A stretch of 64,000 nt of DNA from Candidatus Moraniibacteriota bacterium (GTDB lineage Bacteria > Patescibacteriota > Minisyncoccia > Moranbacterales > UBA1568), in the NCBI GenBank assembly GCA_963743885.1, contig CAVURJ010000001.1, positions 279,488-343,487 on the forward strand, in the 5' to 3' direction. Positions 4,037 to 60,459 of the stretch are shown here, in pieces (the stretch's first letter is position 1; the number at the start of each line of letters is the position of its first letter). A program made the translations under genes and the position numbers. Below the pieces are notes generated by a model that was not told the origin of the DNA, did not search any database, and saw only the letters and a list, made by a program, of their open reading frames with translations.

Positions 4037-4342
4037 GTGAAGATATTCCAGAGAAAGATTGAAGATTTCGAGTGCGGGAAGTGCGGGTTCGCCGTAAAGG
4101 GGAACGGATATACCAATCATTGTCCGAAGTGCCTCTTTAGTCAGCATGTCGATGTACACCCGGGCGATCGGGCAGCGGAATGCGGCGGGCTCATGGAGCC
4201 GGTTTTCTTGGAACGGGCGGATGGCGAGCAGAAGTTGACGCATCGCTGCGTCGTCTGCGGCCATGAGAAGAAAAATAAGGTGGGTGCTGATGATGGCTTT
4301 GAGGCTTTATTGGAACTAGCCAGGAAAATTTCCAATTTTTGA
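4037..4342 (+). CDS. RNHCP-domain zinc-ribbon protein
   Basis: Contains YTNHCPKC plus additional CxxC pairs. GTG start. Confidence 0.55.
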   Translation: MKIFQRKIEDFECGKCGFAVKGNGYTNHCPKCLFSQHVDVHPGDRAAECGGLMEPVFLERADGEQKLTHRCVVCGHEKKNKVGADDGFEALLELARKISNF

Positions 4343-4560
4343 TAGAAATAAAATCCGAAATCCGAAATTCTAAACACGAAACAAATCCTAATCTTGAAAT
4401 CCAAAACGAAAAACAAGGGTTTGAAATTTCAGTTTTTTGATTTTGAATTTGTTTAGAAATTAGGAATTAGATATTAGAAATTTCAAAAGCGATTGTTTTC
4501 GATAGGATTGTTTGATATCGATAGTGCAGAAGAAAAGAAAAACGGATATAAAAAGCCAAA
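4343..4560. repeat. AT-rich low-complexity intergenic repeat tract (aaatccgaaat / gattttgaattt k-mers)
   Basis: Shares k-mers with tracts at 15186-15326, 43545-43684, 48595-48692 and 48880-48920. Confidence 0.5.
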
Positions 4561-11373: not shown

Positions 11374-11636
11374 CTAGTGAAGCAAAGAGAAGTGGTCTTC
11401 TGCCACTTCCCTTTGCTTTTTAGGGGTAATGGGAATCGAAGGGCGCGAGTCGGATGCGAGTGAACGAGCATCCTGTGTGTAGCGCCCAGGCTCCGAGTCG
11501 GAGCGAGGAGGATTCCCGTATCTCGCTCAAGACTAGTATATCAATGAGGCGGGTTGGATTTTTACCCGCCTCTGGCGGGCCCGTTACCCGCTCATAAGAA
11601 TAAAAGACCCTGGCTTATTCCGGGTCTTTTGTTTTT

Positions 11637-14375: not shown

Positions 14376-15185
14376 ATGGGTCTTGTCGGATTGCTCGCAA
14401 CAGTCGCTCTCATGGCAGTCGCGTCCTGGTATATGCTTGCTGGGCCGTCTTCGCCGAGCGTCGTGGTGGATACTACGGATACGGTACCCGCGGTCGTAGA
14501 GGGTTCGGCTGTTCCGGCGGATACGAATAGTGTCGCGGGAGCGCAGGCGCTCATCGGCCAGGCGACTGGGCTCAAGGCAGCACTTGAAAAGAAGACCGCT
14601 GATGAAGTGGCTATGACTGAAGACAGTCAACAAACAACAAATAACAGTCAACAGGGAGCAACTAACAGTCAGCAGTTAACAGCCAACAGTCAACAGGGAG
14701 TAAAAGATTCAAAGGCTAACGAAGCTCTCTCAATCATCGACAAGAAGGTTTCGTTTGGTTTTTCGGTATCGTCCGGACGGAAGATTGATACAGTCGTGTT
14801 GCATTCGTCCTATGACGCGCTCGGGTCTGAGCCGTATTCTGTATCGGGCACCATCAAGGAGTACGGGGAATACGGCGTCGCGCCGCATTATCTGATTGAT
14901 CGGAAGGGGAATATCTATCGTCTCGTGGATGACAAGAATATCGCCTATCATGCCGGCGAGAGCCAGATGAAGGATGGCCGGACAGGAGTGAATGGCTTTT
15001 CAATCGGTATCGAGCTTTTGAATAAGGAAGATGATCAGTATACGGATGCCCAATATGCGGCTGTGAATAGTCTGATCGCGTACCTCAAGGACTTGTATCC
15101 GATCAAGTCTGTCGTTGGCCATGACGATATCGCTCCTGGCCGTAAGACTGACCCTTGGAACTTCGAGTGGAAGAGAGTGAAATGA
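14376..15185 (+). CDS. N-acetylmuramoyl-L-alanine amidase (Amidase_2/PGRP family)
   Basis: AYHAG..FSIGIEL..GHDDIAPGRKTDP motifs. N-terminal TM/signal and a Q/N/T-rich repetitive linker. Confidence 0.75.
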   Translation: MGLVGLLATVALMAVASWYMLAGPSSPSVVVDTTDTVPAVVEGSAVPADTNSVAGAQALIGQATGLKAALEKKTADEVAMTEDSQQTTNNSQQGATNSQQLTANSQQGVKDSKANEALSIIDKKVSFGFSVSSGRKIDTVVLHSSYDALGSEPYSVSGTIKEYGEYGVAPHYLIDRKGNIYRLVDDKNIAYHAGESQMKDGRTGVNGFSIGIELLNKEDDQYTDAQYAAVNSLIAYLKDLYPIKSVVGHDDIAPGRKTDPWNFEWKRVK

Positions 15186-15326
15186 ATTGAAGAAATTCAA
15201 AATTTAAAATCACAAGCTCCAAATAAATTCAAAAACTATAATTTTAAAAATAAGATGCCCTTAAGATACTCTGAGTTTTGATATTGCAATTTATTTGATA
15301 TTTGTAATTTTGAATTTGGTGCTTTT
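15186..15326. repeat. AT-rich intergenic repeat (shares ~130 bp of motifs with 43545-43684)
   Basis: cacaagctccaaataaattcaaaa ... ttttgaatttggtgctttt versus tacaagctccaaataaacttcaaa ... ttttgaatttggtgctttc. Confidence 0.55.
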
Positions 15327-15626
15327 ATGACGTATGTATTCAGACTGAAAATAGAGAAAGACAAATCATCGCTTGCATTGGTTAAGGATGGAGCAGTGCG
15401 GGCGGCACGTGAGTGGTCTGAGACCCGCGATATGGGACAGCGGCTGTTCCAGGCGATCGATGAGCTACTCTCTGAACAGGGGATCAAGCCGGAAGATGTG
15501 GCTGATTTTGAGATTGATTCGGATATGCCGGACGGGTATATGTCGATGCGTATTGCAGAAACAGTCAAAAAGACGTATACTTTCGGTGTAGCTTCTCTCC
15601 GCTCCGATGGAGCGGTTGGCGGCTGA
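15327..15626 (+). CDS. TsaB/YeaZ-like N-terminal domain protein (truncated, 99 aa)
   Basis: LALVKDGAVRAAREWSETRDMGQRLFQAIDELLSEQGIKPEDV matches the TsaB N-terminal half (ALL.DG.VLAER.W..R.HSERLLPMIDELL..AGI...DLDA). The C-terminal half is absent. Confidence 0.4.
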   Translation: MTYVFRLKIEKDKSSLALVKDGAVRAAREWSETRDMGQRLFQAIDELLSEQGIKPEDVADFEIDSDMPDGYMSMRIAETVKKTYTFGVASLRSDGAVGG

Positions 15627-39004: not shown

Positions 39005-39628
39005 ATGGCTGCTCAAAAAGTGGTCGTCGATGGGTCGACTGTCTCGGCTCGTCAGATGAAGGATTTCTGGCGTCAGGTCGACGACGGATCGATTACGGGC
39101 GAGATACTCCAAGCAGTTCTTGAACATCGTAACCCGTTCGAGAAAGTGATCAACAATGCGATGTTCACCGTCACCTCCGATGGTCGCACCGGCGAAGAGT
39201 TCATTCGTGATTTCAAGCGGAACGACTACCGCGTCGGTGACTATGCATCGGATGTGATGCGGAAGCCCGCCTTCGTCGCCACGAACGACAAGACGTACCG
39301 ACTTGGCCTCATCAAGGGAGAAGAATTCTCCGATGCCGAGCGGTCGACGAAGAATATCTGTGCTGAAGCAGCTCGTCGAGGTTGGCTCACGCCACCGGCG
39401 GAAGTCGCGCCGCTCCTTCGGGAGACGGTCTCCGATGAAGAGATCAAGCATCTCGGTCTGTGGTGGCTCGTCGTTATGCACGAACCGATTATCGATTCCG
39501 ATGGCGGTGCGCGCTTGCTCGGCCTCCACCGCCACGGTGGTGGCCAGTGGCTCGACACGCGCTACGGCAAGCCAGGCCGTCGGTGGGGTCGTGAGGATGG
39601 GTTCCTGTTCCTTCTCCCGCAAGATTAG
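39005..39628 (+). CDS. Hypothetical protein (C-terminal ~40 aa duplicated downstream)
   Basis: 207 aa ORF with AGGAGAG SD. No family recognised. Confidence 0.55.
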   Translation: MAAQKVVVDGSTVSARQMKDFWRQVDDGSITGEILQAVLEHRNPFEKVINNAMFTVTSDGRTGEEFIRDFKRNDYRVGDYASDVMRKPAFVATNDKTYRLGLIKGEEFSDAERSTKNICAEAARRGWLTPPAEVAPLLRETVSDEEIKHLGLWWLVVMHEPIIDSDGGARLLGLHRHGGGQWLDTRYGKPGRRWGREDGFLFLLPQD

Positions 39629-39921: not shown

Positions 39922-40098
39922 TTGGTGGGTGGCGAATCGAAGGGTGGTGGCAAAGATGGAAAGCCGTACGTTTCCGATGGCGATGCGAACTTGCTCAACC
40001 TCAACCGCAACGATGATGGCCAGTGGCTCGACACGAACTACGACAAGCCAGACAATCGGTGGAATCGTGAGAATGGGTTCCTGTTCCTTCTCCCGCAA
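39922..40098 (+). pseudogene. Partial duplicate of the 3' end of the gene at 39005
   Basis: DNA 40015-40098 is ~85% identical to 39540-39622 (…GQWLDT.Y.KP..RW.RE.GFLFLLPQ). It has only a TTG start and no N-terminal domain. Confidence 0.5.
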
Positions 40099-42908: not shown

Positions 42909-43532
42909 CTAGTGTTTCGTAGAGAGCCAGGTGAGAATCTCATCTTTCGCTTTCGGGAAGATTCCAGAAAGTTGCGCGAGCTCGTCGGAAGAGAGTTTGC
43001 CGAGGACGTAGTCGTGCGAAGGCCCGCCCACACCGCTTCGCGGAGTGCTTCGGGCAGGTTGGCAGGCGCCGAGGACCTCGGTCGGCCCGCCCGCAACGTT
43101 TCGCGTAGCGATTCGGGCAGGCCGGCCGATACCGAGACGGATGCGGAAGAAATCCTGGAGCCCGAGTTTGTCGATGATATCTTGCACGCCGTTGTGTCCG
43201 GCAGCGCGAGACGAGTCCGTCGTGCGGAGCGTGCCTGGGGCGATGTCGAGGTCATCATGGACGATAGTGATGTCGGACGGGGAGAGCTTATAGAAATGCA
43301 TGATCGATTGGACGGGTGTGCCGGATGTGTTCATGAAGGTTTCTGGTTTCATGATGATGACTTTTTCGGAGCCGATCATACCAGAGGAGAGCTCAGCCGA
43401 CAGCTTCTTGTCGGATCTGAACTCTTCGAAGCCGAGCTCCTTGCGGAGGAAGTCGACGAAGAGGAAGCCGGCGTTGTGCCGAGTCATGGAGTACTTTTCC
43501 CCTGGATTACCTAACCCTATAATTAATTTCAT
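42909..43532 (-). CDS. pth: Peptidyl-tRNA hydrolase with a ~33 aa in-frame insertion
   Basis: GLGNPG..Y..TRHNAGF, HDDLD, RLGIGRP...HDYVLGK. The inserted stretch between GIGRP and HDYVLGK is encoded by the tandem GC-rich repeats at 43021-43132. Confidence 0.85.
   Translation of the reverse strand: MKLIIGLGNPGEKYSMTRHNAGFLFVDFLRKELGFEEFRSDKKLSAELSSGMIGSEKVIIMKPETFMNTSGTPVQSIMHFYKLSPSDITIVHDDLDIAPGTLRTTDSSRAAGHNGVQDIIDKLGLQDFFRIRLGIGRPARIATRNVAGGPTEVLGACQPARSTPRSGVGGPSHDYVLGKLSSDELAQLSGIFPKAKDEILTWLSTKH
43021..43132. repeat. Tandem GC-rich repeat (two diverged ~50-60 nt units) lying in frame inside the pth coding sequence
   Basis: ggcccgcccacaccgcttcgcggagtgcttcgggcagg... followed by ggcccgcccgcaacgtttcgcgtagcgattcgggcagg... 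. The second unit is nearly identical to 35374-35412. Confidence 0.7.
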
Positions 43533-43544
43533 ATTTAAATTCAA

Positions 43545-43684
43545 AACTCAAAATTACAAGCTCCAAATAAACTTCAAATTTCAAATACAAAACCTAGAAC
43601 GTTTTGAATGTTTGGATTTTGATATTGTGATTTATTTGGAAATTGGGATTTTGAATTTGGTGCTTTCGGAGAGTATTTCATGTG
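43545..43684. repeat. AT-rich intergenic repeat, paralogous to 15186-15326
   Basis: Shared blocks tacaagctccaaataaacttcaaa and gattttgaatttggtgcttt. Confidence 0.55.
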
Positions 43685-45265
43685 TTATTTCTTCTTCCGG
43701 GGTTGTGGGGCGAGTGGTTCAGAGAAGGTCGTGTCTTCTGGTTCGGCGGCTTCGGTGGCGTTTTCATCGAAGTCGAGCCGGTCGGCTATATCGGCGCCGA
43801 TCACGATCACAAAATCGGCTCCTGCTGGTGAGGCGATGCCCGCCGGAAGGGAGGGAGAGAGTCCGAGTCCGAAGCGCTTCATGAGTTCGTCGAGCGAGTA
43901 CGGTTTCTGCCCGCCGCTCCTGTCGACTATGATACTCCGTCCAGAGCGGTTTTCCAATGCGCCGGATTTTGAGAGGGAAATGTCTTCGAAGGGGAGGTCG
44001 CTCTGGATGATACTTGAAAGCTTGCGTGCGGTCGTAGTGTCGTCTGCGGCGGAGAGGATGGTGAGCGACGGTTCCTCGCTTCCAATCTTGGCCTGGCGCT
44101 CCCGGATGGCGCCGAGGTCGAAGACGTGCTCCGAGACATCGTGGATCTCGCTCCAGTCGCCGACGCGCGGTACGAGGATGAAAGCGGCGACTGGGCCGAC
44201 CTGGACGTGTGAGACGCGGAGCAGACTATCCTTCTTCCAGGCATCGATGACGGCCGTGGAGATATTCTTTGTGTCGATGGTCCTAGAAAGCTCGATGAAG
44301 CTCTTCATCTCGTCGAGGCTCATATCAGTCCGGACGCTTTCGCCGAGCGCATCGAGGAGGCCGCTTATGGCGAAGGCATTGAGGAGTGTGCCGGTCGAAA
44401 AGGCTTTGTCGCGGACGGCCTGGATCACCTGCTGCTGGCGTTTGGCACGGCCGAAGTCGCCTTCCGGATCATTGTGCCGTTCGCGGACGTATTTGAGTGC
44501 CGTCGCGCCGTCGAGTGTCTGCCAGCCTTTCTTGATATCGAAGGTTTCGTAGCTGTAGTTCTTGCCTGGGTAGCGTTCGTCGTGGAAGTCGCGCACGACA
44601 TCGACTGATACGCCGCCGATCGCGTCGATCGCTTTCTCGAAGCCATCGAAGTCGAGTGTGGCAAAGTAATGTATTTTCTGCCCGGTCATCTCCTCGACGG
44701 AAGCCCTGACTACGGAGGCGCCATCTCCGCCGCTTAGTCCGTACTGGTAGAGTGAGTTGAGCTTGGTATAGAGGTCGGAGCCAGGGATCGGGGCGTAGAG
44801 GTCGCGTGGCAAGGAAAGGAGGGCGACGCGCTTCTTCTCGGTGTCGATGCTCATGAGCATGACGGTATCGGTGAGTTCGCGTCCCGGATAGCGTGCGCCG
44901 GCCCGGCCCAGGAGGAGGATATTGATGCGGCCGCTGTCTTCGCCGAGGAGCTCTGCTCGATCATCATGGATGACCGATCCAGCGATGCTTCTGATCTGCG
45001 AGAGGAATCCGGCGTGGTTCTCAATCTGGATGCCGCTGCCTGTCTGGAGCCCTTTGCCGACGATGAAGAGAAATGCCCCCGCGATGCCGAGGAGGATAAT
45101 ACCGGAAACGATGAGGAGTATTTTACTGATTCGTCGTTTCGGGTGGTTCGTGGTGCGTGGCGCTGCTCTCTCCGGCGCGGGCGTTTCCGGGGCAGCCTGA
45201 AGCGGCGCCGGTGGGTAGCTGGGGGTCGGGATCCCTGTTGGTGTTGGCTTGCGGAGTCCGTCCAT
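43685..45265 (-). CDS. LytR-CpsA-Psr (LCP) family cell-envelope glycopolymer transferase
   Basis: N-terminal TM. DTVMLMSIDTEKKRVALLSLPRDLY LCP core. C-terminal LytR_C-like domain. Confidence 0.75.
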   Translation of the reverse strand: MDGLRKPTPTGIPTPSYPPAPLQAAPETPAPERAAPRTTNHPKRRISKILLIVSGIILLGIAGAFLFIVGKGLQTGSGIQIENHAGFLSQIRSIAGSVIHDDRAELLGEDSGRINILLLGRAGARYPGRELTDTVMLMSIDTEKKRVALLSLPRDLYAPIPGSDLYTKLNSLYQYGLSGGDGASVVRASVEEMTGQKIHYFATLDFDGFEKAIDAIGGVSVDVVRDFHDERYPGKNYSYETFDIKKGWQTLDGATALKYVRERHNDPEGDFGRAKRQQQVIQAVRDKAFSTGTLLNAFAISGLLDALGESVRTDMSLDEMKSFIELSRTIDTKNISTAVIDAWKKDSLLRVSHVQVGPVAAFILVPRVGDWSEIHDVSEHVFDLGAIRERQAKIGSEEPSLTILSAADDTTTARKLSSIIQSDLPFEDISLSKSGALENRSGRSIIVDRSGGQKPYSLDELMKRFGLGLSPSLPAGIASPAGADFVIVIGADIADRLDFDENATEAAEPEDTTFSEPLAPQPRKKK

Positions 45266-47540: not shown

Positions 47541-47562
47541 TGGATATTCTGTAAGTTTTTCC

Positions 47563-47712
47563 GTTCCACGGTCTCCGTCGAACATCCCTGACTCGCTCTG
47601 CCGAACAGGGGGCTGTCCGCTCTGAGGCCCGAAACGGTCCCGAGCGTCACGCCCGACCGTTGCCGGCTCGCTCATCACGGATGTGGCCGCCGTCATCCGA
47701 AGGAAGGAAAAA
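47563..47712. repeat. Copy P of a ~150 bp intergenic repeat (second copy Q at 54307-54456)
   Basis: ttccacggtctccgtcgaacatccctgactcgctctgccgaacagggggctg... versus ttccacgatcttcgtcgaacatttctgactcgctctgtcgaacggggagctg... are ~80% identical over ~140 nt. Confidence 0.7.
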
Positions 47713-48520: not shown

Positions 48521-48692
48521 TATCGGCTGTTTTTCAGTGCGATTGCCAGGCCATCGAGATGTCTTTTGTGGGACATGGCGGTGGCCTGGTTGTGTTTTTG
48601 AAATCCAAAAATCAAAATCACAAATCCCAAACAAGTTCCAATGACCGAAATTCAAAATCCGAAACGTTTTGAGTTTTGATGGTTGGGATTTA

Positions 48693-48870
48693 TTACCAAG
48701 TGTAGTGAGTGAAACGAGAGTTTACTCTCGTTTCCGAACGGAGCGCAGGTAAAATCGGGTTGAATACCTCGCGGCTTGCCCGCCTAGCCGGCGAGGCTGG
48801 CCGCAGAATAAAACGAACATCAGTTCGTTTTTAGGGTCCAGGGCTTGCCCTGGGGTGAATACCCGTTATA
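48693..48870 (+). repeat. Copy Y of the ~170 bp structured repeat family (with a 21 nt internal insert)
   Basis: Aligns with 58263-58423 and with the reverse complement of 1382-1540. Hairpins with CUUG loops and compensatory stem changes. Confidence 0.75.
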
Positions 48871-48920
48871 ATTTATTTGTGAATTGTGATTTTGAATTTT
48901 GTATTTTTAAGGAAAAAGAT

Positions 48921-49373
48921 ATGGCTTTATACGAAACCATTGGCAACCATCTCAAGGAGGCTATGAAGTCGGGCGATACGTTCCGTCGTGATACACTCCG
49001 CCTCGTTCAGAGCGCCGTGAAGAACGTCGCGATTGACAAGTTGAAGAGTCCGGTTGATTTGTCTGATAGTGAGATAGAGGAGGTGCTCCGCCGTTTGGTG
49101 AAGCAGCGCAAGGATAGCGTCGAGCAGTACCGCGCCGGCGGCCGCGAGGATCTGGCGTCGGGCGAGGAAGCTGAGCTTAATCTGCTCGCGACCTATCTGC
49201 CGCAGGCGATGCCGGAAGCTGAGCTTCGGACGCTTGTCGAGGAAGCGCTTAAGGAATCAGGAATCGCGGAGAAGTCCAAGATGGGCCAGGCGATGGGTGT
49301 CGTCATGAAGAAAGTCGCTGGTCGCGCTTCGGGCGATGATGTTCGCAAGATGGTGGAGTCGCTGCTCGCATAG
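48921..49373 (+). CDS. GatB/YqeY domain-containing protein
   Basis: YETIGNHLKEAMKSGDTFRRDTLRLVQSAVKN...LATYLPQ matches the YqeY family. Confidence 0.75.
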   Translation: MALYETIGNHLKEAMKSGDTFRRDTLRLVQSAVKNVAIDKLKSPVDLSDSEIEEVLRRLVKQRKDSVEQYRAGGREDLASGEEAELNLLATYLPQAMPEAELRTLVEEALKESGIAEKSKMGQAMGVVMKKVAGRASGDDVRKMVESLLA

Positions 49374-50338: not shown

Positions 50339-50524
50339 GGTAACCCTCTCAAATCTCACCGCCTGTTATGACTCAAAAAGAGCTTGTCCGAAAAAACCAT
50401 CTCCGTTCCGGCTGCAAAATCCGAAAAGCTTGTCGGGTTATCACTGATAGCCCTTTGCGTTTTTCGACTTTTTCGCTCGAAACGGAGATGGTTTTTTCTG
50501 GACATGAGATTTGAGAGAGTTACC
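50339..50524 (+). repeat. 186 bp element with ~20 bp terminal inverted repeats, directly upstream of ftsA (copy 1)
   Basis: Termini ggtaaccctctcaaatctca ... tgagatttgagagagttacc. Internal inverted repeat aaaaccatctccgtt / aacggagatggtttt. 85-90% identical to 51790-51975. Confidence 0.8.
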
Positions 50525-50528
50525 ACCT

Positions 50529-51788
50529 ATGGCCAAAGGGCATTATCACATCGGTCTGGATATCGGATCAGCCAACACCCGTGCCGTCATCGCGCAAGAG
50601 ATTGCCGATGATGAGCTTTTGCGTGTCGTTGGTGTCGGTACCGCGCCTTCGTCCGGGATGCGTCGCGGCGCGGTCGTTGATGCTGAAGCAGTCGCTAAGG
50701 TCTGCAATGAAGTGCTCGAGCATGCGGAGCGCATGGCGGGACATCCGGCTGAGAGCGTGACCGTGAGCGTGACTGGGGCCGAGATCGCCTGTCAGGATGC
50801 GCTTGGTGTCGTCGCGGTTGGCCGCGCCGATGGCGAGGTGACCGAAGACGATATGTCGCGTGCCTTCGAGGAAGTGCAGGCGCGGCTCGTCCTGCCGCTC
50901 AATCAGGAGATCATCCATGTCGTGCCGAAGGATTATCGGCTCGATGACCAGAAGAATATCAAGGATCCGCTCGGCATGCGCGGTGTCCGGCTCGAGATGA
51001 ACGCGTTCGTCGTGACAGGGAGCGCTTCGCACCTCAAGAATCTTTCACGCAGTCTGGAACAGGCCGGCACGTCACCGGATAGCTTCGTTGTTGAGCCGCT
51101 CGCTTGCGCGGAATCAGTGCTCCATCGCAAGCAGAAGGAGCTTGGGACAGCGATCATCAATATCGGCGGTGCCACGACATCACTTGCGGTATATGAGGAT
51201 GGCGATTTGCTCCATCTGGCGGTTTTCCCGGTCGGTGGCGACCACATCACGAACGATATCGCCATCGGACTCCGCACGTCGATCGAGGTAGCGGAAGCGG
51301 TCAAGCTGCAGTATGGCAGTGCGATCTCTGATGATATCGCTAAGAAGGAAGAGATCGACCTCAACCTCTTTGATACGCACGAGGAAGGATCTGTTTCCCG
51401 TCGACACGTCGCGGAGATCATCGAGGCGCGCCTCGAGGAGATTTTCCTCTTCGTCAATGCGTCGCTCAAGGAAATCGGCCGCGAAGGTTTGCTTCCGGGC
51501 GGTGTCATCCTGACGGGTGGGGGTGCACTTCTGCCAGGTATCGTTGAGCTCGCGAAGGATACGCTCAGACTGCCGGCGCAGATCGGATATCCGAAGCCAC
51601 TGGGTGGCATCCTGGACCAGGTGGACAGCCCGTCATTCGCGACCGTGATTGGTCTTGTACTGCTCGCAAGAAATACCCATGTCTCTTCGAAAGGATTCTC
51701 GTCCCAGAAGGTCTGGAACAAGATGCCAGAGGGGATGCAGGGTGCGATCGAGAAGCTGAAGCACTGGTCAAAACGGTTCCTGCCGTGA
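50529..51788 (+). CDS. ftsA: Cell division protein FtsA
   Basis: Actin-like ATPase. HIGLDIGSANTRAVIA phosphate-1 motif and FtsA-specific domain architecture. Start set at ATG 50529, outside the repeat. Confidence 0.85.
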   Translation: MAKGHYHIGLDIGSANTRAVIAQEIADDELLRVVGVGTAPSSGMRRGAVVDAEAVAKVCNEVLEHAERMAGHPAESVTVSVTGAEIACQDALGVVAVGRADGEVTEDDMSRAFEEVQARLVLPLNQEIIHVVPKDYRLDDQKNIKDPLGMRGVRLEMNAFVVTGSASHLKNLSRSLEQAGTSPDSFVVEPLACAESVLHRKQKELGTAIINIGGATTSLAVYEDGDLLHLAVFPVGGDHITNDIAIGLRTSIEVAEAVKLQYGSAISDDIAKKEEIDLNLFDTHEEGSVSRRHVAEIIEARLEEIFLFVNASLKEIGREGLLPGGVILTGGGALLPGIVELAKDTLRLPAQIGYPKPLGGILDQVDSPSFATVIGLVLLARNTHVSSKGFSSQKVWNKMPEGMQGAIEKLKHWSKRFLP

Positions 51789-51789
51789 G

Positions 51790-51975
51790 TAACTCTCTCA
51801 AAATCTCACCGCCAGTTACAAGTCGAAGAATGCTTGTCTGTAAAAATCACTCCCGTTCCGGCTGCAAAATCCGAAAAGCTTGTCGGGTTATTGCTAATAG
51901 CCCTTCGCACTTTTCGACTTTTTCGCTCGAAACGTGAATGATTTTTTCTAGACATGAGATTTTGAGAGAGTTACC
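51790..51975 (+). repeat. 186 bp element with terminal inverted repeats (copy 2), between ftsA and ftsZ
   Basis: gtaactctctcaaaatctca ... tgagattttgagagagttacc. Same orientation and length as copy 1. Confidence 0.8.
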
Positions 51976-54251: not shown

Positions 54252-54306
54252 TTTTTAGCATTTACATTCGTTTGTTTTTTACACTCCTCCTCCTTTTCAT
54301 TTTTTC

Positions 54307-54456
54307 TTCCACGATCTTCGTCGAACATTTCTGACTCGCTCTGTCGAACGGGGAGCTGTTTGTTCTGAGGGCTGAAACAGCCCCGAACGCCACGCTCGAC
54401 CGTTACCGACTCGCTCATCAGAAATGTTACCGCCGAGAGACCGGAGGAAGAAAAAA
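54307..54456. repeat. Copy Q of the ~150 bp intergenic repeat
   Basis: See 47563-47712. Confidence 0.7.
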
Positions 54457-58003: not shown

Positions 58004-58210
58004 ATGGGACAGAAAGAAGGTGATGGTCTGGGCGCTCTTGGCTCCGCAATGACCGGAGATGGCGCGGCTCGAGATCTGGATATCGCGGCTCGTCTCGCGA
58101 TCGTTCAGGGACGTCTTGATGACGGACAGACTGGTAATCCAAATCTTTCCGATACGCCTTACAACAAGGTGGCGCATGGGTTTTGGTTTGATGATCGGAT
58201 CAGGGCATAG
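58004..58210 (+). CDS. Small hypothetical protein (68 aa)
   Basis: GAGGAGG SD before ATG 58004. Extended -10 TGgTATACT at 57928-57936. Confidence 0.4.
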   Translation: MGQKEGDGLGALGSAMTGDGAARDLDIAARLAIVQGRLDDGQTGNPNLSDTPYNKVAHGFWFDDRIRA

Positions 58211-58262
58211 CCGCAACAGCGGCGACAAGAAAGGGGCTTTCCACAAGAGAGCTCCTTTTCAA

Positions 58263-58423
58263 TTACCAAGCGGAGTGAGTGAAACGAAAACTTGTTTTCG
58301 TTTCCGAACGGAGCGCTGGTAAAATCGGGTCAGATACCCCGCGTCTTGCCGCGGAACAGGACAATCCGACGAAAGGAGGATTGTACGGGGTGCGGGGCTT
58401 GCCCCGCGGTGAATACCCGTTAT
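58263..58423 (+). repeat. Copy Z of the ~170 bp structured repeat family, upstream of tRNA-Pro(GGG)
   Basis: ttaccaagcggagtgagtgaaacgaaaacttgttttcgtttccgaacggagcgctggtaaaatcgggtcagatacc...gggcttgccccgcggtgaatacccgttat. Confidence 0.75.
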
Positions 58424-58483
58424 TTTTTGAAAACCATGAGCATTGTCGAATGGCCGGAATTTTGCTACGGTTAGAGATGTTTT

Positions 58484-58554
58484 CGGGTTGTAGTATACTG
58501 GTAGTACGCGTCCATGGGGTGGATGTAGACCGGGTTCGATTCCCGGCAGCCCGA
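58484..58554 (+). tRNA. tRNA-Pro (anticodon GGG)
   Basis: Acceptor CGGGTTG/CAGCCCG, D-stem GTAT/GTAC, anticodon stem CGTCC/GGATG with loop ATGGGGT, T-arm CCGGG-TTCGATT-CCCGG. Confidence 0.75.
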
Positions 58555-58639
58555 CTTGGTATAAATGCCAAAAAGGAGTTCAAGGCTGGGGGGCGAAAAG
58601 TGAACTGCTTCACTTTTTGCGGGTATCCCCGCAAGACGT

Positions 58640-58695
58640 CCTTGTCTTGCGGAAAGAGGATACCCCGGAACTTGTAGTTCGGGTTCGATTCCCGA
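58640..58695 (+). other. tRNA 3'-half-like fragment (T-arm plus acceptor 3' strand), with no 5' half
   Basis: gtagttcgggttcgattcccgataccccgac parallels the tRNA-Pro 3' end gtagaccgggttcgattcccggcagcccgac. No matching 5' acceptor strand upstream. Confidence 0.45.
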
Positions 58696-58743
58696 TACCC
58701 CGACAAAAAGAAGAACAAGAAAACCGAAACAAAAGATGTTTTT

Positions 58744-60459
58744 ATGCAGAATATAACGATCCGGATAAACGGAGTGACGTTTCCGGTTGAACCAGGCAAA
58801 ACGGTCCTTGATGCGGCTCGTGAGAACGGCATCAAGATACCGGCGCTCTGCTTTCATCCGGATGTCGAGACGAGGAATCATTGCGGTATGTGCGTCGTGG
58901 AGGTCAGGGGCGAGGGAAATCTTCGACATGCCTGCGCGACAACCGTAGAGGAGGGGATGGAGATTACGACTGTTTCCGATCGGATTACTGAGGAACGGAA
59001 GAAGAATCTGGACCGCGTGCTCAAGAAGCATGTGATGGAATGCGACGACTGCGTATGGATGGGACGTTGCCAACTTCTGGAGCTCGTCAAAGAGATCAAG
59101 GCGAAGCCGATAGCGGCGAAACACGAGGAAGATAGGGTGCTCCAGGTGGGTACGATGGTCTTCGACCAGACCAAGTGCATTGGTTGCGAGCATTGCGTGA
59201 GCGTCTGTCCGACGGGATTTCTTGATATGAATGACCGTGGGCGAGTCTGCCCTTCGGCGGATGGCGAGAAGGACTGTGTGAACTGCGGCCAGTGCATCCT
59301 CCATTGCCCGGTCGGCGCCATCGAGGGTGTCGGGGAATTCGAGGAATTGGAGAAGATCTTTGCGGACAAGGAAAAGACGGTCGTAGTGCAGTTCGCACCG
59401 GCAATCCGCGCGAGCATCGGGGACGAGTTCGGCATGCCGGAGGGCACGGTCGCTACGGGCCAGCTGGTAGCCGGTCTCAAGAAGCTCGGGTTCAGTTTCG
59501 TCTTTGATATGGCGTCTGCGGCTGATTTTACGACGATGGAAGAGGCTGGCGAAGTCGTCGAGCGGGTGACGAGTGGAGAGCGCCTGCCAATCATGACGTC
59601 ATGCTGCCCGGCCTGGGTGAAATTCGTAGAGTTCAATTATCCGGAATTCATCCCGAACCTTGCGACGTCACGGTCGCCGCAAATCATGCTCGGTGGCATC
59701 GTCAAGAATTACTGGAGTCAGAAGAATGGTATCGATCCGAAGAATGTCTTCGTAGTGTCCATCATGCCGTGTGTGGCCAAGAAATTCGAAATCAGGCGGG
59801 AGGAGCTCATGATAGACGGCTATCGCCCGGTGGATATGGTGCTCACGACGCGCGAGCTGGCGCGGCTTTTCAAGAAGAAGGGGATCGATTTGAAGGAGGT
59901 CGGCGAAGCGGATGCGGATGGTCCACTCGGTAGTCCGTCGGGGGCGGGTGTGATCTATGGTGCGAGCGGCGGCGTCTTCGAATCGGCACTCCGCACGGTC
60001 TATTACAAGATGACCGGAGAGAATCTTCCAGAGGGAGCAGTTGAGGAGATCCGCGGTCAGGAAGGCATCAAGGGGAAGAAACTTACGATCAGCGGAAAGA
60101 CAGTGAAGGTCTGCGTGGTAAGCGGCATTCGAAATGCCAAGAAGGCGCTTGATATGCTCAAGGAACACCCGGGACTTTTTGATGCGCTCGAAGTGATGGC
60201 CTGTCCAGGTGGATGCATCGCCGGTGGTGGCCAGCCGGTGCCGATAAGTCGCTCTATCGTCAAGGAGCGGGCGCGGTCGCTTTACGCTATTGATAGCGGA
60301 AAGGAGATCCGGTATGCCCATGAGAATCCGGCGGTGAAGGAGGCCTATGAGGAGTTCTTCGTGAATGAGGAGATACGGAAGAAGATCCTGCATACGCGGT
60401 TCGCGCCGAGGGAAAAATCCGATATACAGACGCTAAAAAACTCAAAAGAAACGCTATGA
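58744..60459 (+). CDS. hydA: [FeFe]-hydrogenase catalytic subunit (2Fe-2S and 4Fe-4S N-terminal domains plus H-cluster domain)
   Basis: H-cluster motifs L1 TSCCPAW, L2 MPCVAKKFE, L3 EVMACPGGCIAGGGQP. N-terminal CFHPDVETRNHCGMC ferredoxin-like and CIGCEHCVSVCP / CVNCGQCILHCP 4Fe-4S motifs. Confidence 0.9.
   Translation: MQNITIRINGVTFPVEPGKTVLDAARENGIKIPALCFHPDVETRNHCGMCVVEVRGEGNLRHACATTVEEGMEITTVSDRITEERKKNLDRVLKKHVMECDDCVWMGRCQLLELVKEIKAKPIAAKHEEDRVLQVGTMVFDQTKCIGCEHCVSVCPTGFLDMNDRGRVCPSADGEKDCVNCGQCILHCPVGAIEGVGEFEELEKIFADKEKTVVVQFAPAIRASIGDEFGMPEGTVATGQLVAGLKKLGFSFVFDMASAADFTTMEEAGEVVERVTSGERLPIMTSCCPAWVKFVEFNYPEFIPNLATSRSPQIMLGGIVKNYWSQKNGIDPKNVFVVSIMPCVAKKFEIRREELMIDGYRPVDMVLTTRELARLFKKKGIDLKEVGEADADGPLGSPSGAGVIYGASGGVFESALRTVYYKMTGENLPEGAVEEIRGQEGIKGKKLTISGKTVKVCVVSGIRNAKKALDMLKEHPGLFDALEVMACPGGCIAGGGQPVPISRSIVKERARSLYAIDSGKEIRYAHENPAVKEAYEEFFVNEEIRKKILHTRFAPREKSDIQTLKNSKETL

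Follow-up and report, generated by a model that had tools for sequence, protein, structure and literature searches.

A probable family of small, fold-dependent insertion elements dispersed in Moranbacteria genomes

The Patescibacteria have tiny genomes and are host-dependent. With about 1 Mb of DNA, they are thought to be poor in transposons, and to our knowledge little is known about their selfish DNA. Elements mobilised by HUH enzymes (the PATEs derived from IS200/IS605, REP/REPIN with RAYT, IS91 and the Helitrons) lack terminal inverted repeats and a clear target duplication, insert at a short fixed motif, carry subterminal hairpins and have one active strand; the IS200/IS605 elements usually show a replication-strand bias. 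ERIC, from enterobacteria, forms an imperfect palindrome whose ends are inverted, and pneumococcal BOX is built of the modules boxA, boxB and boxC. The Rickettsia palindromic elements are small hairpin repeats of a reduced-genome bacterium, found in frame in many genes (PMC10969869), and regulatory roles have been described for other small repeats (reviewed in PMC10969869).

Here we describe a family of structured repeats from the Moranbacteria and concentrate on one member, copy Z, from a 64,000-nucleotide stretch of a Moraniibacteriota genome that was analysed as a whole (hereafter the window). Very probably, Z is one of a family of insertion elements that are small, non-coding, non-autonomous and fold-dependent, and was inserted after the lineage of the window had left its nearest sampled relative. 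Given the empty sites, the nesting, the presence of both orientations, the copies in essential genes and the patchy distribution, the family behaves as selfish mobile DNA. No account of such an element in the Patescibacteria turned up in a full-text literature search. By the tests run, the element is a member of none of the families compared here and is counted among the small non-autonomous dispersed repeats.

By analogy, the closest counterpart would be the Rickettsia palindromic elements. Both are small, non-coding and hairpin-forming, both reside in a reduced-genome, host-dependent bacterium, and both occur between genes as well as in frame in unrelated housekeeping genes, where the copies lengthen the product by a peptide; for neither is a transposase known (PMC10969869). 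In the present family, in-frame and stop-free insertion was found in UvrC, MurE and a 675-aa membrane protein. However, the phyla are different, and the likeness is put forward as an analogy only. Moreover, the in-gene copies are a minority here (three of about 28), and the fold has two domains with optional hairpins instead of one long palindrome. BOX and ERIC resemble our element in their modular build: the end modules are conserved, the internal ones vary in number, size variants arise by insertions at fixed internal positions, and stable RNA structures are predicted (see also PMC10969869), but neither has its UUACC...GGUAAAAU / CGGGU...ACCCGUUAU framework. Like classical MITEs, the element is short, non-coding, present in many copies, polymorphic in its insertion between relatives and nested in other repeats; unlike them, it lacks terminal inverted repeats in any register. 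As in IS200/IS605, there are no inverted repeats, hairpins are situated near both ends, and insertion occurs 3' of a fixed short motif, whereas IS608 ends and REPs have single imperfect hairpins, which are simpler than the present fold.

The covariance model R1 was built from 24 family members and applied unfiltered to the window, where it detects three copies and no more, X, Y and Z. Copy Z is on the plus strand; the element proper, TACC...GTTAT, occupies 58264–58423 (160 nt) and scores 149.9 bits (E 8e-35), the model span of 58260–58423 including four flank bases. Hence the structured repeat copy that had been proposed at 58263–58423 is real. It is of the long form, with domain 1 of subtype B. 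Copy Y (plus strand, 48694–48869, 176 nt; R1 span 48690–48869, 158.1 bits) is a long form with a lengthened P3, located between rpsU and yqeY and nested within an AT-rich palindromic repeat. Copy X (minus strand, 1383–1536, 154 nt; R1 span 1383–1540, 158.5 bits) is a long form with domain 1 of subtype A, lying antisense between the cofD-like and FNR-like genes. The remaining R1 matches with E < 0.1 are the opposite strands of X, Y and Z and their apical hairpins, at 14–40 bits.

The proposed sameness of Z and the element at 48693–48870 was borne out by the R1 score of Y and by a direct-repeat scan, which pairs 48692–48780 with 58262–58350, that is, the first 89 nt of Y and Z, at 84% identity. 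Motif searches recovered Y and Z and revealed X on the minus strand, with 0 chance matches expected. The fold of Z has an energy of -65.1 kcal/mol (z = -3.4 against shuffles), and in the shuffle tests each of the three copies folds far better than expected, with z from -3.4 to -5.4. The three copies diverge by about 16% and are thus not a single recent burst, and two domain-1 subtypes coexist within one genome. At the gathering score, Rfam yields four tRNAs in the whole window and no match on the element; a permissive Rfam search (E up to 10) of 58150–58800 gives nothing credible over the element and no match to a ribozyme family.

All copies share the frame TACC - AAACGAAG(Y)GAG - apical hairpin - CGAGCG(C)AGUGCC - GGUAAAAU - CGGGU - ... 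- ACCCG - UUAU, with the element proper ranging from 80 to 193 nt. In the minimum-free-energy fold of Z, on the plus strand throughout, domain 1 is an irregular 60-nt hairpin (58263–58322) with the closing helix UUACC/GGUAA (58263–58267 with 58318–58322), a tandem G.A (GUGAG/CGAAC) and an apical 10-bp hairpin (58281–58304). Domain 2 (58326–58419) is formed by three hairpins enclosed by the 5-bp stem CGGGU/ACCCG (58326–58330 with 58415–58419), namely P3 (58339–58354), the variable P4 (58361–58384) and P5, with a CUUG loop (58392–58407). Stand-alone CUUG hairpin modules were found nowhere else in the window. The middle hairpin common to X and Y is AAACGAAC-AUCA-GUUCGUUU; that of Z, acaatcc-gacgaaagga-ggattgt at 58361–58384, does differ, as the original prediction stated, and is unique in the family.

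The number of domain-2 hairpins varies across the family. Short forms (80–81 nt) have none, and their CGGGU/ACCCG stem closes a 7-nt loop, UNNAAUA. One hairpin is present in L021:3491–3599, two in L053:9192–9330 and L005, and three in the majority, X, Y and Z included. A second (A)AUACC closes the inserted block, which is therefore bracketed by AUACC as a direct repeat. In most long forms the middle hairpin resembles the apical hairpin of domain 1 (GAAACGA...UCGUUUC), hence the long form looks like a partial internal duplication. Additional hairpins are seen in domain 1 of the L004 and L018 copies; Y and L005 have a longer P3 or P5. The unpaired junction sequences are highly conserved across the family, and the modular build suggested earlier, conserved junctions plus replaceable hairpins, describes it well. 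A possible sister repeat is present at L034:419–518, L034:1–82 and L040:3508–3664; it shares the GC-rich CUUG-loop hairpins (CCGCCGCTTGCGGCG, CTCGCGGCTTGCCGCGAG) and has the GATACC junction, with domain 1 absent, and may represent a sister family.

The alignment of 24 copies has 93.3% of cells in standard pairs, compared to 38–47% when the partners are slid, and changes on both sides of the helix, that is, compensatory ones, are observed at 14 of the 51 pairs. None of 500 column shuffles reached the observed pairing values, a count that is not a probability since the copies are mutually related. Five compensatory pairs belong to the apical helix of domain 1, where four copies have exchanged GAAACG/CGUUUC for GUAGUG/CACUAC. 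Other helices changed as well: P5 in Z (CCAGGG/CCCUGG to GCGGGG/CCCCGC) and P3 in L008 (CGCGG/CCGCG to CGUGG/CCACG). One covarying pair of domain 1 is seen as C-G, U-G and U-A, never as C-A. The diverged copy L004:3945–4028 keeps both helices through compensatory P1 (UUACU/AGUAA) and P2 (AUGG/CCAU). These substitutions show that the predicted fold is under selection.

The sense strand is more stable than the antisense one in 20 of the 24 copies, by 4.8 kcal/mol on average, and G.U pairs exceed A.C mismatches about 3:1, with one doubtful helix left out. Together with the covariation, the stability of the sense strand indicates that one particular strand matters, be it RNA or single-stranded DNA. 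The conserved unpaired nucleotides and the one-strand G.U pairs would fit a functional RNA too.

In total, about 28 distinct copies were recovered, nearly all from metagenome-assembled genomes labelled Moranbacteria or Patescibacteria. A pattern scan of species-representative genomes yielded 14 true loci, whose titles read Moranbacteria/Moraniibacteriota, Minisyncoccota or "Patescibacteria group", with a few TPA assemblies labelled otherwise. A metagenome scan provided further loci, many of them the same site re-sampled, and the R1 search of the fetched loci added more diverged copies. The copies of L002 and L036 were counted as intergenic, as the ORFs around them have no family and look spurious. 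Copy density reaches three in 64 kb in the window and three in 11.6 kb in L053. The family occurs patchily, and only in Moranbacteria/Patescibacteria genomes. Carriage by phages is unlikely, as two patterns searched in viral contigs gave no match. Two database "hypothetical proteins", P0122 and P0123, are antisense translations of long-form copies (...GIQPDFTGTALGNESLLSFRSLRLVI), and hence annotation artefacts.

Evidence for mobility comes from orthologous sites. The [FeFe] hydrogenase encoded beside Z has an 81%-identical homologue on L060, the closest relative available. At the site of Z, L060 retains the left flank GAGCTCCTTTTCAAT and has no element: the upstream DNA, with a small ORF and AGGGGCTTTCCACAGGAGAGCTCCTTTTCAAT, is kept and then passes straight into ...ACGGTTAGAAATGTTTTCGGG. 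The insertion point of Z is exactly after the pre-existing target CAAT (58260–58263, plus strand), Z standing immediately 3' of ...AT, and the same CAAT is found at the empty site of L060. In L061–L063 (hydrogenases 67–69% identical) synteny is lost, and these loci are uninformative for the Z site. The comparison shows Z to be an insertion polymorphic between relatives. A contig of the same organism from another sample (P0001) has gene spacing equal to that of the window, thus Z is presumably fixed in that strain.

The site of X is empty in L064, L065 and L068, where the CofD proteins are 89%, 89% and 80% identical and the cofD-FNR order is kept; the spacers there consist of GGCTTAATAAAGCTTTTTTT, without the element, and the window has CTTAA|ATAACGGG...(X, reverse complement)...GGTAATAA|AAGC. 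When applied to about 95 kb from nine relatives' loci, R1 detects no convincing copy: nothing is found in L060–L063, and L064–L068 give a single marginal match, in L068 (19.8 bits, E 0.005).

In the case of Y, the comparison is internal to the window, as the AT-rich palindromic repeat into which Y is inserted has three further paralogues there, all of them intact. The four copies of this inverted-arm repeat, about 150 nt long, are located at 4328–4505, 15170–15345, 43514–43690 and 48578–48930, the fourth being split by Y. Its inverted arms are AAATTCAAAATTCAAAATCACAAG... / ...TTGTGATTTTGAATTT.

The window contains several other repeats. A true MITE-like repeat of about 180 nt is present in two direct copies, 85% identical, at 50351–50512 and 51801–51962, flanking ftsA (50511–51785), with terminal inverted repeats of about 21 bp (GGTAACCCTCTCAAAATCTCA ... 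TGAGATTTTGAGAGAGTTACC). A third repeat, about 150 nt long, is intergenic at 47557–47692 (after hisS) and 54300–54435 (before comEC), with 80% identity. Another pair, 39493–39622 and 39969–40098, consists of 130-nt units 476 nt apart, 85% identical, and a tandem array at 14623–14703 contains three 21-nt units (ACAGTCAACA...).

Both ARAGORN and Rfam place tRNA-Pro(GGG), a neighbour of Z and not part of it, at 58484–58555 on the plus strand. The distance of 60 nt given in the original prediction is thus correct. The role in a tRNA precursor deduced there from the 5' position did not hold up: L060 has the same flank and the tRNA-Pro(GGG) genes without the element, and absence from this site in a close relative is precisely what the prediction had named as the observation that would speak against it. 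Given insertion after the split from the nearest sampled relative, the position next to the tRNA would be an accident of insertion into an AT-rich spacer. With a promoter upstream, Z would ride on the pre-tRNA and then be discarded by 5' processing. Nothing indicates a role of Z in tRNA maturation, nor is it suggested that the tRNA needs Z. A tRNA leader as the general function of the element was rejected, since among the distinct copies only Z and the one at the L009 locus adjoin tRNAs. The latter, re-sampled in several metagenomes, stands between tRNA-Trp and tRNA-Glu on the same strand, 15–33 nt from each.

These two tRNA-adjacent copies are among the facts that could be read in favour of a host-encoded family of structured small RNAs, trans-acting or housekeeping, with Z co-transcribed with tRNA-Pro and freed by the tRNA processing enzymes. 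Such a family would also account for the strand-specific covarying fold with its highly conserved unpaired junctions, and for the two domain-1 subtypes in one genome. However, a host RNA gene agrees poorly with empty orthologous sites and some 95 kb of close relatives' DNA without a convincing copy, with copies inside uvrC and murE and five more antisense to both neighbours, and with tRNA proximity in just two of about 28 distinct copies and no Rfam match. We regard this explanation as quite improbable.

The ancestor seemingly had two tandem tRNA-Pro(GGG) genes, of which the window keeps the first intact and the second broken (58556–58705). In the broken gene the 5' half is degenerate, an insert of about 78 nt, made up of two hairpins, directly follows the anticodon loop CTGGGGG, and the 3' half (58667–58705) is still tRNA-like. 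In the L060 pair (296–372 and 420–491) the first gene is degenerate and the second intact. Elsewhere in the window, a sequence resembling the 3' end of tRNA-Gly(CCC), CCCGTTACCCGCTC, is found at 11580–11607, about 220 nt 3' of tRNA-Gly(CCC); it may be a tRNA fragment or the remnant of an attachment site.

The insertion site is short and AT-rich. In the left flank, which reads ...(T)TAT or AAT, position -2 is A and position -1 is T in all 28 copies; the next base outward is T in 26 of 28, and the one beyond it in 24 of 28 (...TTAT in 24 of 28), with a T-rich run upstream. The first base 3' of the element is T in 22 of 28 copies, and the 3' end of the element itself is GTTAT. As a result, AT, TAT or TTAT is present at both junctions, with a junction ambiguity of 1–4 bases. 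The left and right junction variants do not covary (CTAT/TTAT at the UvrC copy, CAAT/TTAT at Z), which limits the junction repeat to at most 2–3 bases, and it may belong to the element instead of being a target duplication. An A^T site is another possible reading of the insertion site, ...TAT^T. Four copies provide, with their terminal TTA, the TAA stop codon of a convergent gene, which fits a preference for TTAT/ATAA sites. A comparison of the 5' end TACCAAACG with the reverse-complemented 3' end ATAACGGGTATT revealed no terminal inverted repeats in any register.

Copies are found in both orientations relative to neighbouring genes. With co-directional flanking genes, a tally based on ORF calls gives about nine sense copies, including the three in-gene ones, versus five antisense to both neighbours. 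Orientation relative to the local GC skew (16 vs 10, p = 0.33) shows no replication-strand bias of the kind usual for IS200/IS605. In the window the skew is positive throughout, yet copies occur on both strands.

Three of the approximately 28 copies reside in protein-coding genes. The uvrC copy (L013:3522–3606, sense) adds 81 nt, in frame and stop-free, to the GIY-YIG domain. It splits the S-Y|F motif, ...RVKSY|FSQD... becoming ...RVKSY-YQTKRVERKFTFISERSAGKIGFNTRY-FSQD..., and the alignment with the solved domain of Bacillus caldotenax (1yd6) extends to either side of a gap of about 31 residues. An identical insert is present in independent assemblies (L024, P0121); a predicted peptide spanning it is, for example, SERSAGKIGFNTR. 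The murE copy (L006:5837–5921, sense, 81 nt) is in a frame other than that of uvrC and corresponds to a gap relative to 4bub. The third copy (L004:924–1029, sense, 102 nt) is in the gene of the 675-aa membrane protein, whose match to the O-antigen ligase is below the threshold. Thus all three are sense, multiples of three and stop-free in the host frame. The consensus has TGA in two frames, and the in-gene copies bear C variants that remove the TGA found in many intergenic copies. Were translation irrelevant, the rough joint chance of these features would be 0.02. Given the multiples of three, the lack of stops and the C variants, we think that the in-gene copies are probably translated through and not spliced out.

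The opposite view is that of an intron-like intervening RNA, whose fold directs its own removal from transcripts, explaining the tolerance in essential genes and the sense-only orientation there. The Patescibacteria are known to be unusually intron-rich (PMC13011429), and the orientation of all three in-gene copies and the conserved sense-strand fold are what such an RNA would show. On the other hand, splicing would not demand lengths of 81, 81 and 102 nt, all stop-free multiples of three (hence the joint chance given above), the element is far below the size of group I and group II introns, and it matches no ribozyme family. We consider splicing exceedingly unlikely. Translated insertions do not seem to be widespread: a comparison of peptides translated from the element with 5.8 billion proteins retrieved the UvrC fragment and, besides it, just two antisense ORFs, both spurious. 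As a separate observation, the 675-aa membrane protein ORF (L004:48–2075, minus strand) contains an 18-nt palindrome, ATGTTCCACGTGGAACAT, many times over and in frame. Depending on the frame, it is translated as MFHVEH, VPRGT or CSTWN, and it represents another repeat tolerated in the coding sequence of these bacteria.

The genes beside the copies are ordinary housekeeping genes unrelated to each other (ftsA/ftsZ, dus, glycosyltransferases, ribosomal proteins including rpmE, tRNA synthetases, yqeY), and the majority of copies lie in short spacers at gene ends. A riboswitch or another cis-regulatory leader was rejected because of the mixed orientations, the antisense position of X between two plus-strand genes and the unrelated neighbours. 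A terminator was rejected as well, the scan finding no terminator-like site at Z. A broader possibility is a regulatory module adopted by the host (a terminator, an RNA-stability element or a processing site), duplicated and kept as an insulator of neighbouring transcription units, like pneumococcal SPRITE and BOX. The gene-end location of most copies agrees with it, as do the 3' part of Z, a stable structure followed by UUAUUUUUU, and the regulatory roles known for other small repeats (PMC10969869). Still, besides Z having no terminator, X and Y lack a U-rich 3' tail, orientation to the flanking genes is mixed, and close relatives do without the element at the same sites. Hence we find this possibility very unlikely.

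For the insertion element itself, we suggest that a mobilising enzyme supplied in trans would recognise the folded single strand, and the fold would be conserved because of this recognition. The lack of inverted repeats and of clear duplication and the short insertion motif are shared with the HUH families, and for this reason an HUH-type single-strand DNA route, like that of IS200/IS605, IS91 or the Helitrons, is placed first; it is our best guess, and a tentative one. The absence of strand bias counts against it, and so does the fact that no HUH/TnpA (Y1) gene is seen among the 52 window ORFs scanned. The same ORFs contain no transposase, recombinase or reverse-transcriptase domains, and neither the window nor the fetched loci have a parent insertion sequence with the same ends or an autonomous partner. 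It is also conceivable, if rather unlikely, that the element is a new mobile kind, spread via a folded single strand or recognised as such by an enzyme so far not linked to transposition, perhaps with an RNA intermediate or removal from mRNA. This would explain the RNA-like multi-domain fold with its G.U pairs, the conserved junctions, the absence of inverted repeats and the fact that in-gene copies are all sense.

Copies of the element can be mistaken for small-RNA genes, riboswitches or tRNA leaders, and also give rise to spurious ORFs. Their in-frame tolerance in uvrC and murE parallels that of the Rickettsia palindromic elements, in an unrelated reduced-genome lineage. As it provides occupied as well as empty sites, insertions nested in another repeat and modular variants, the family is a tractable case for studying how such elements move.
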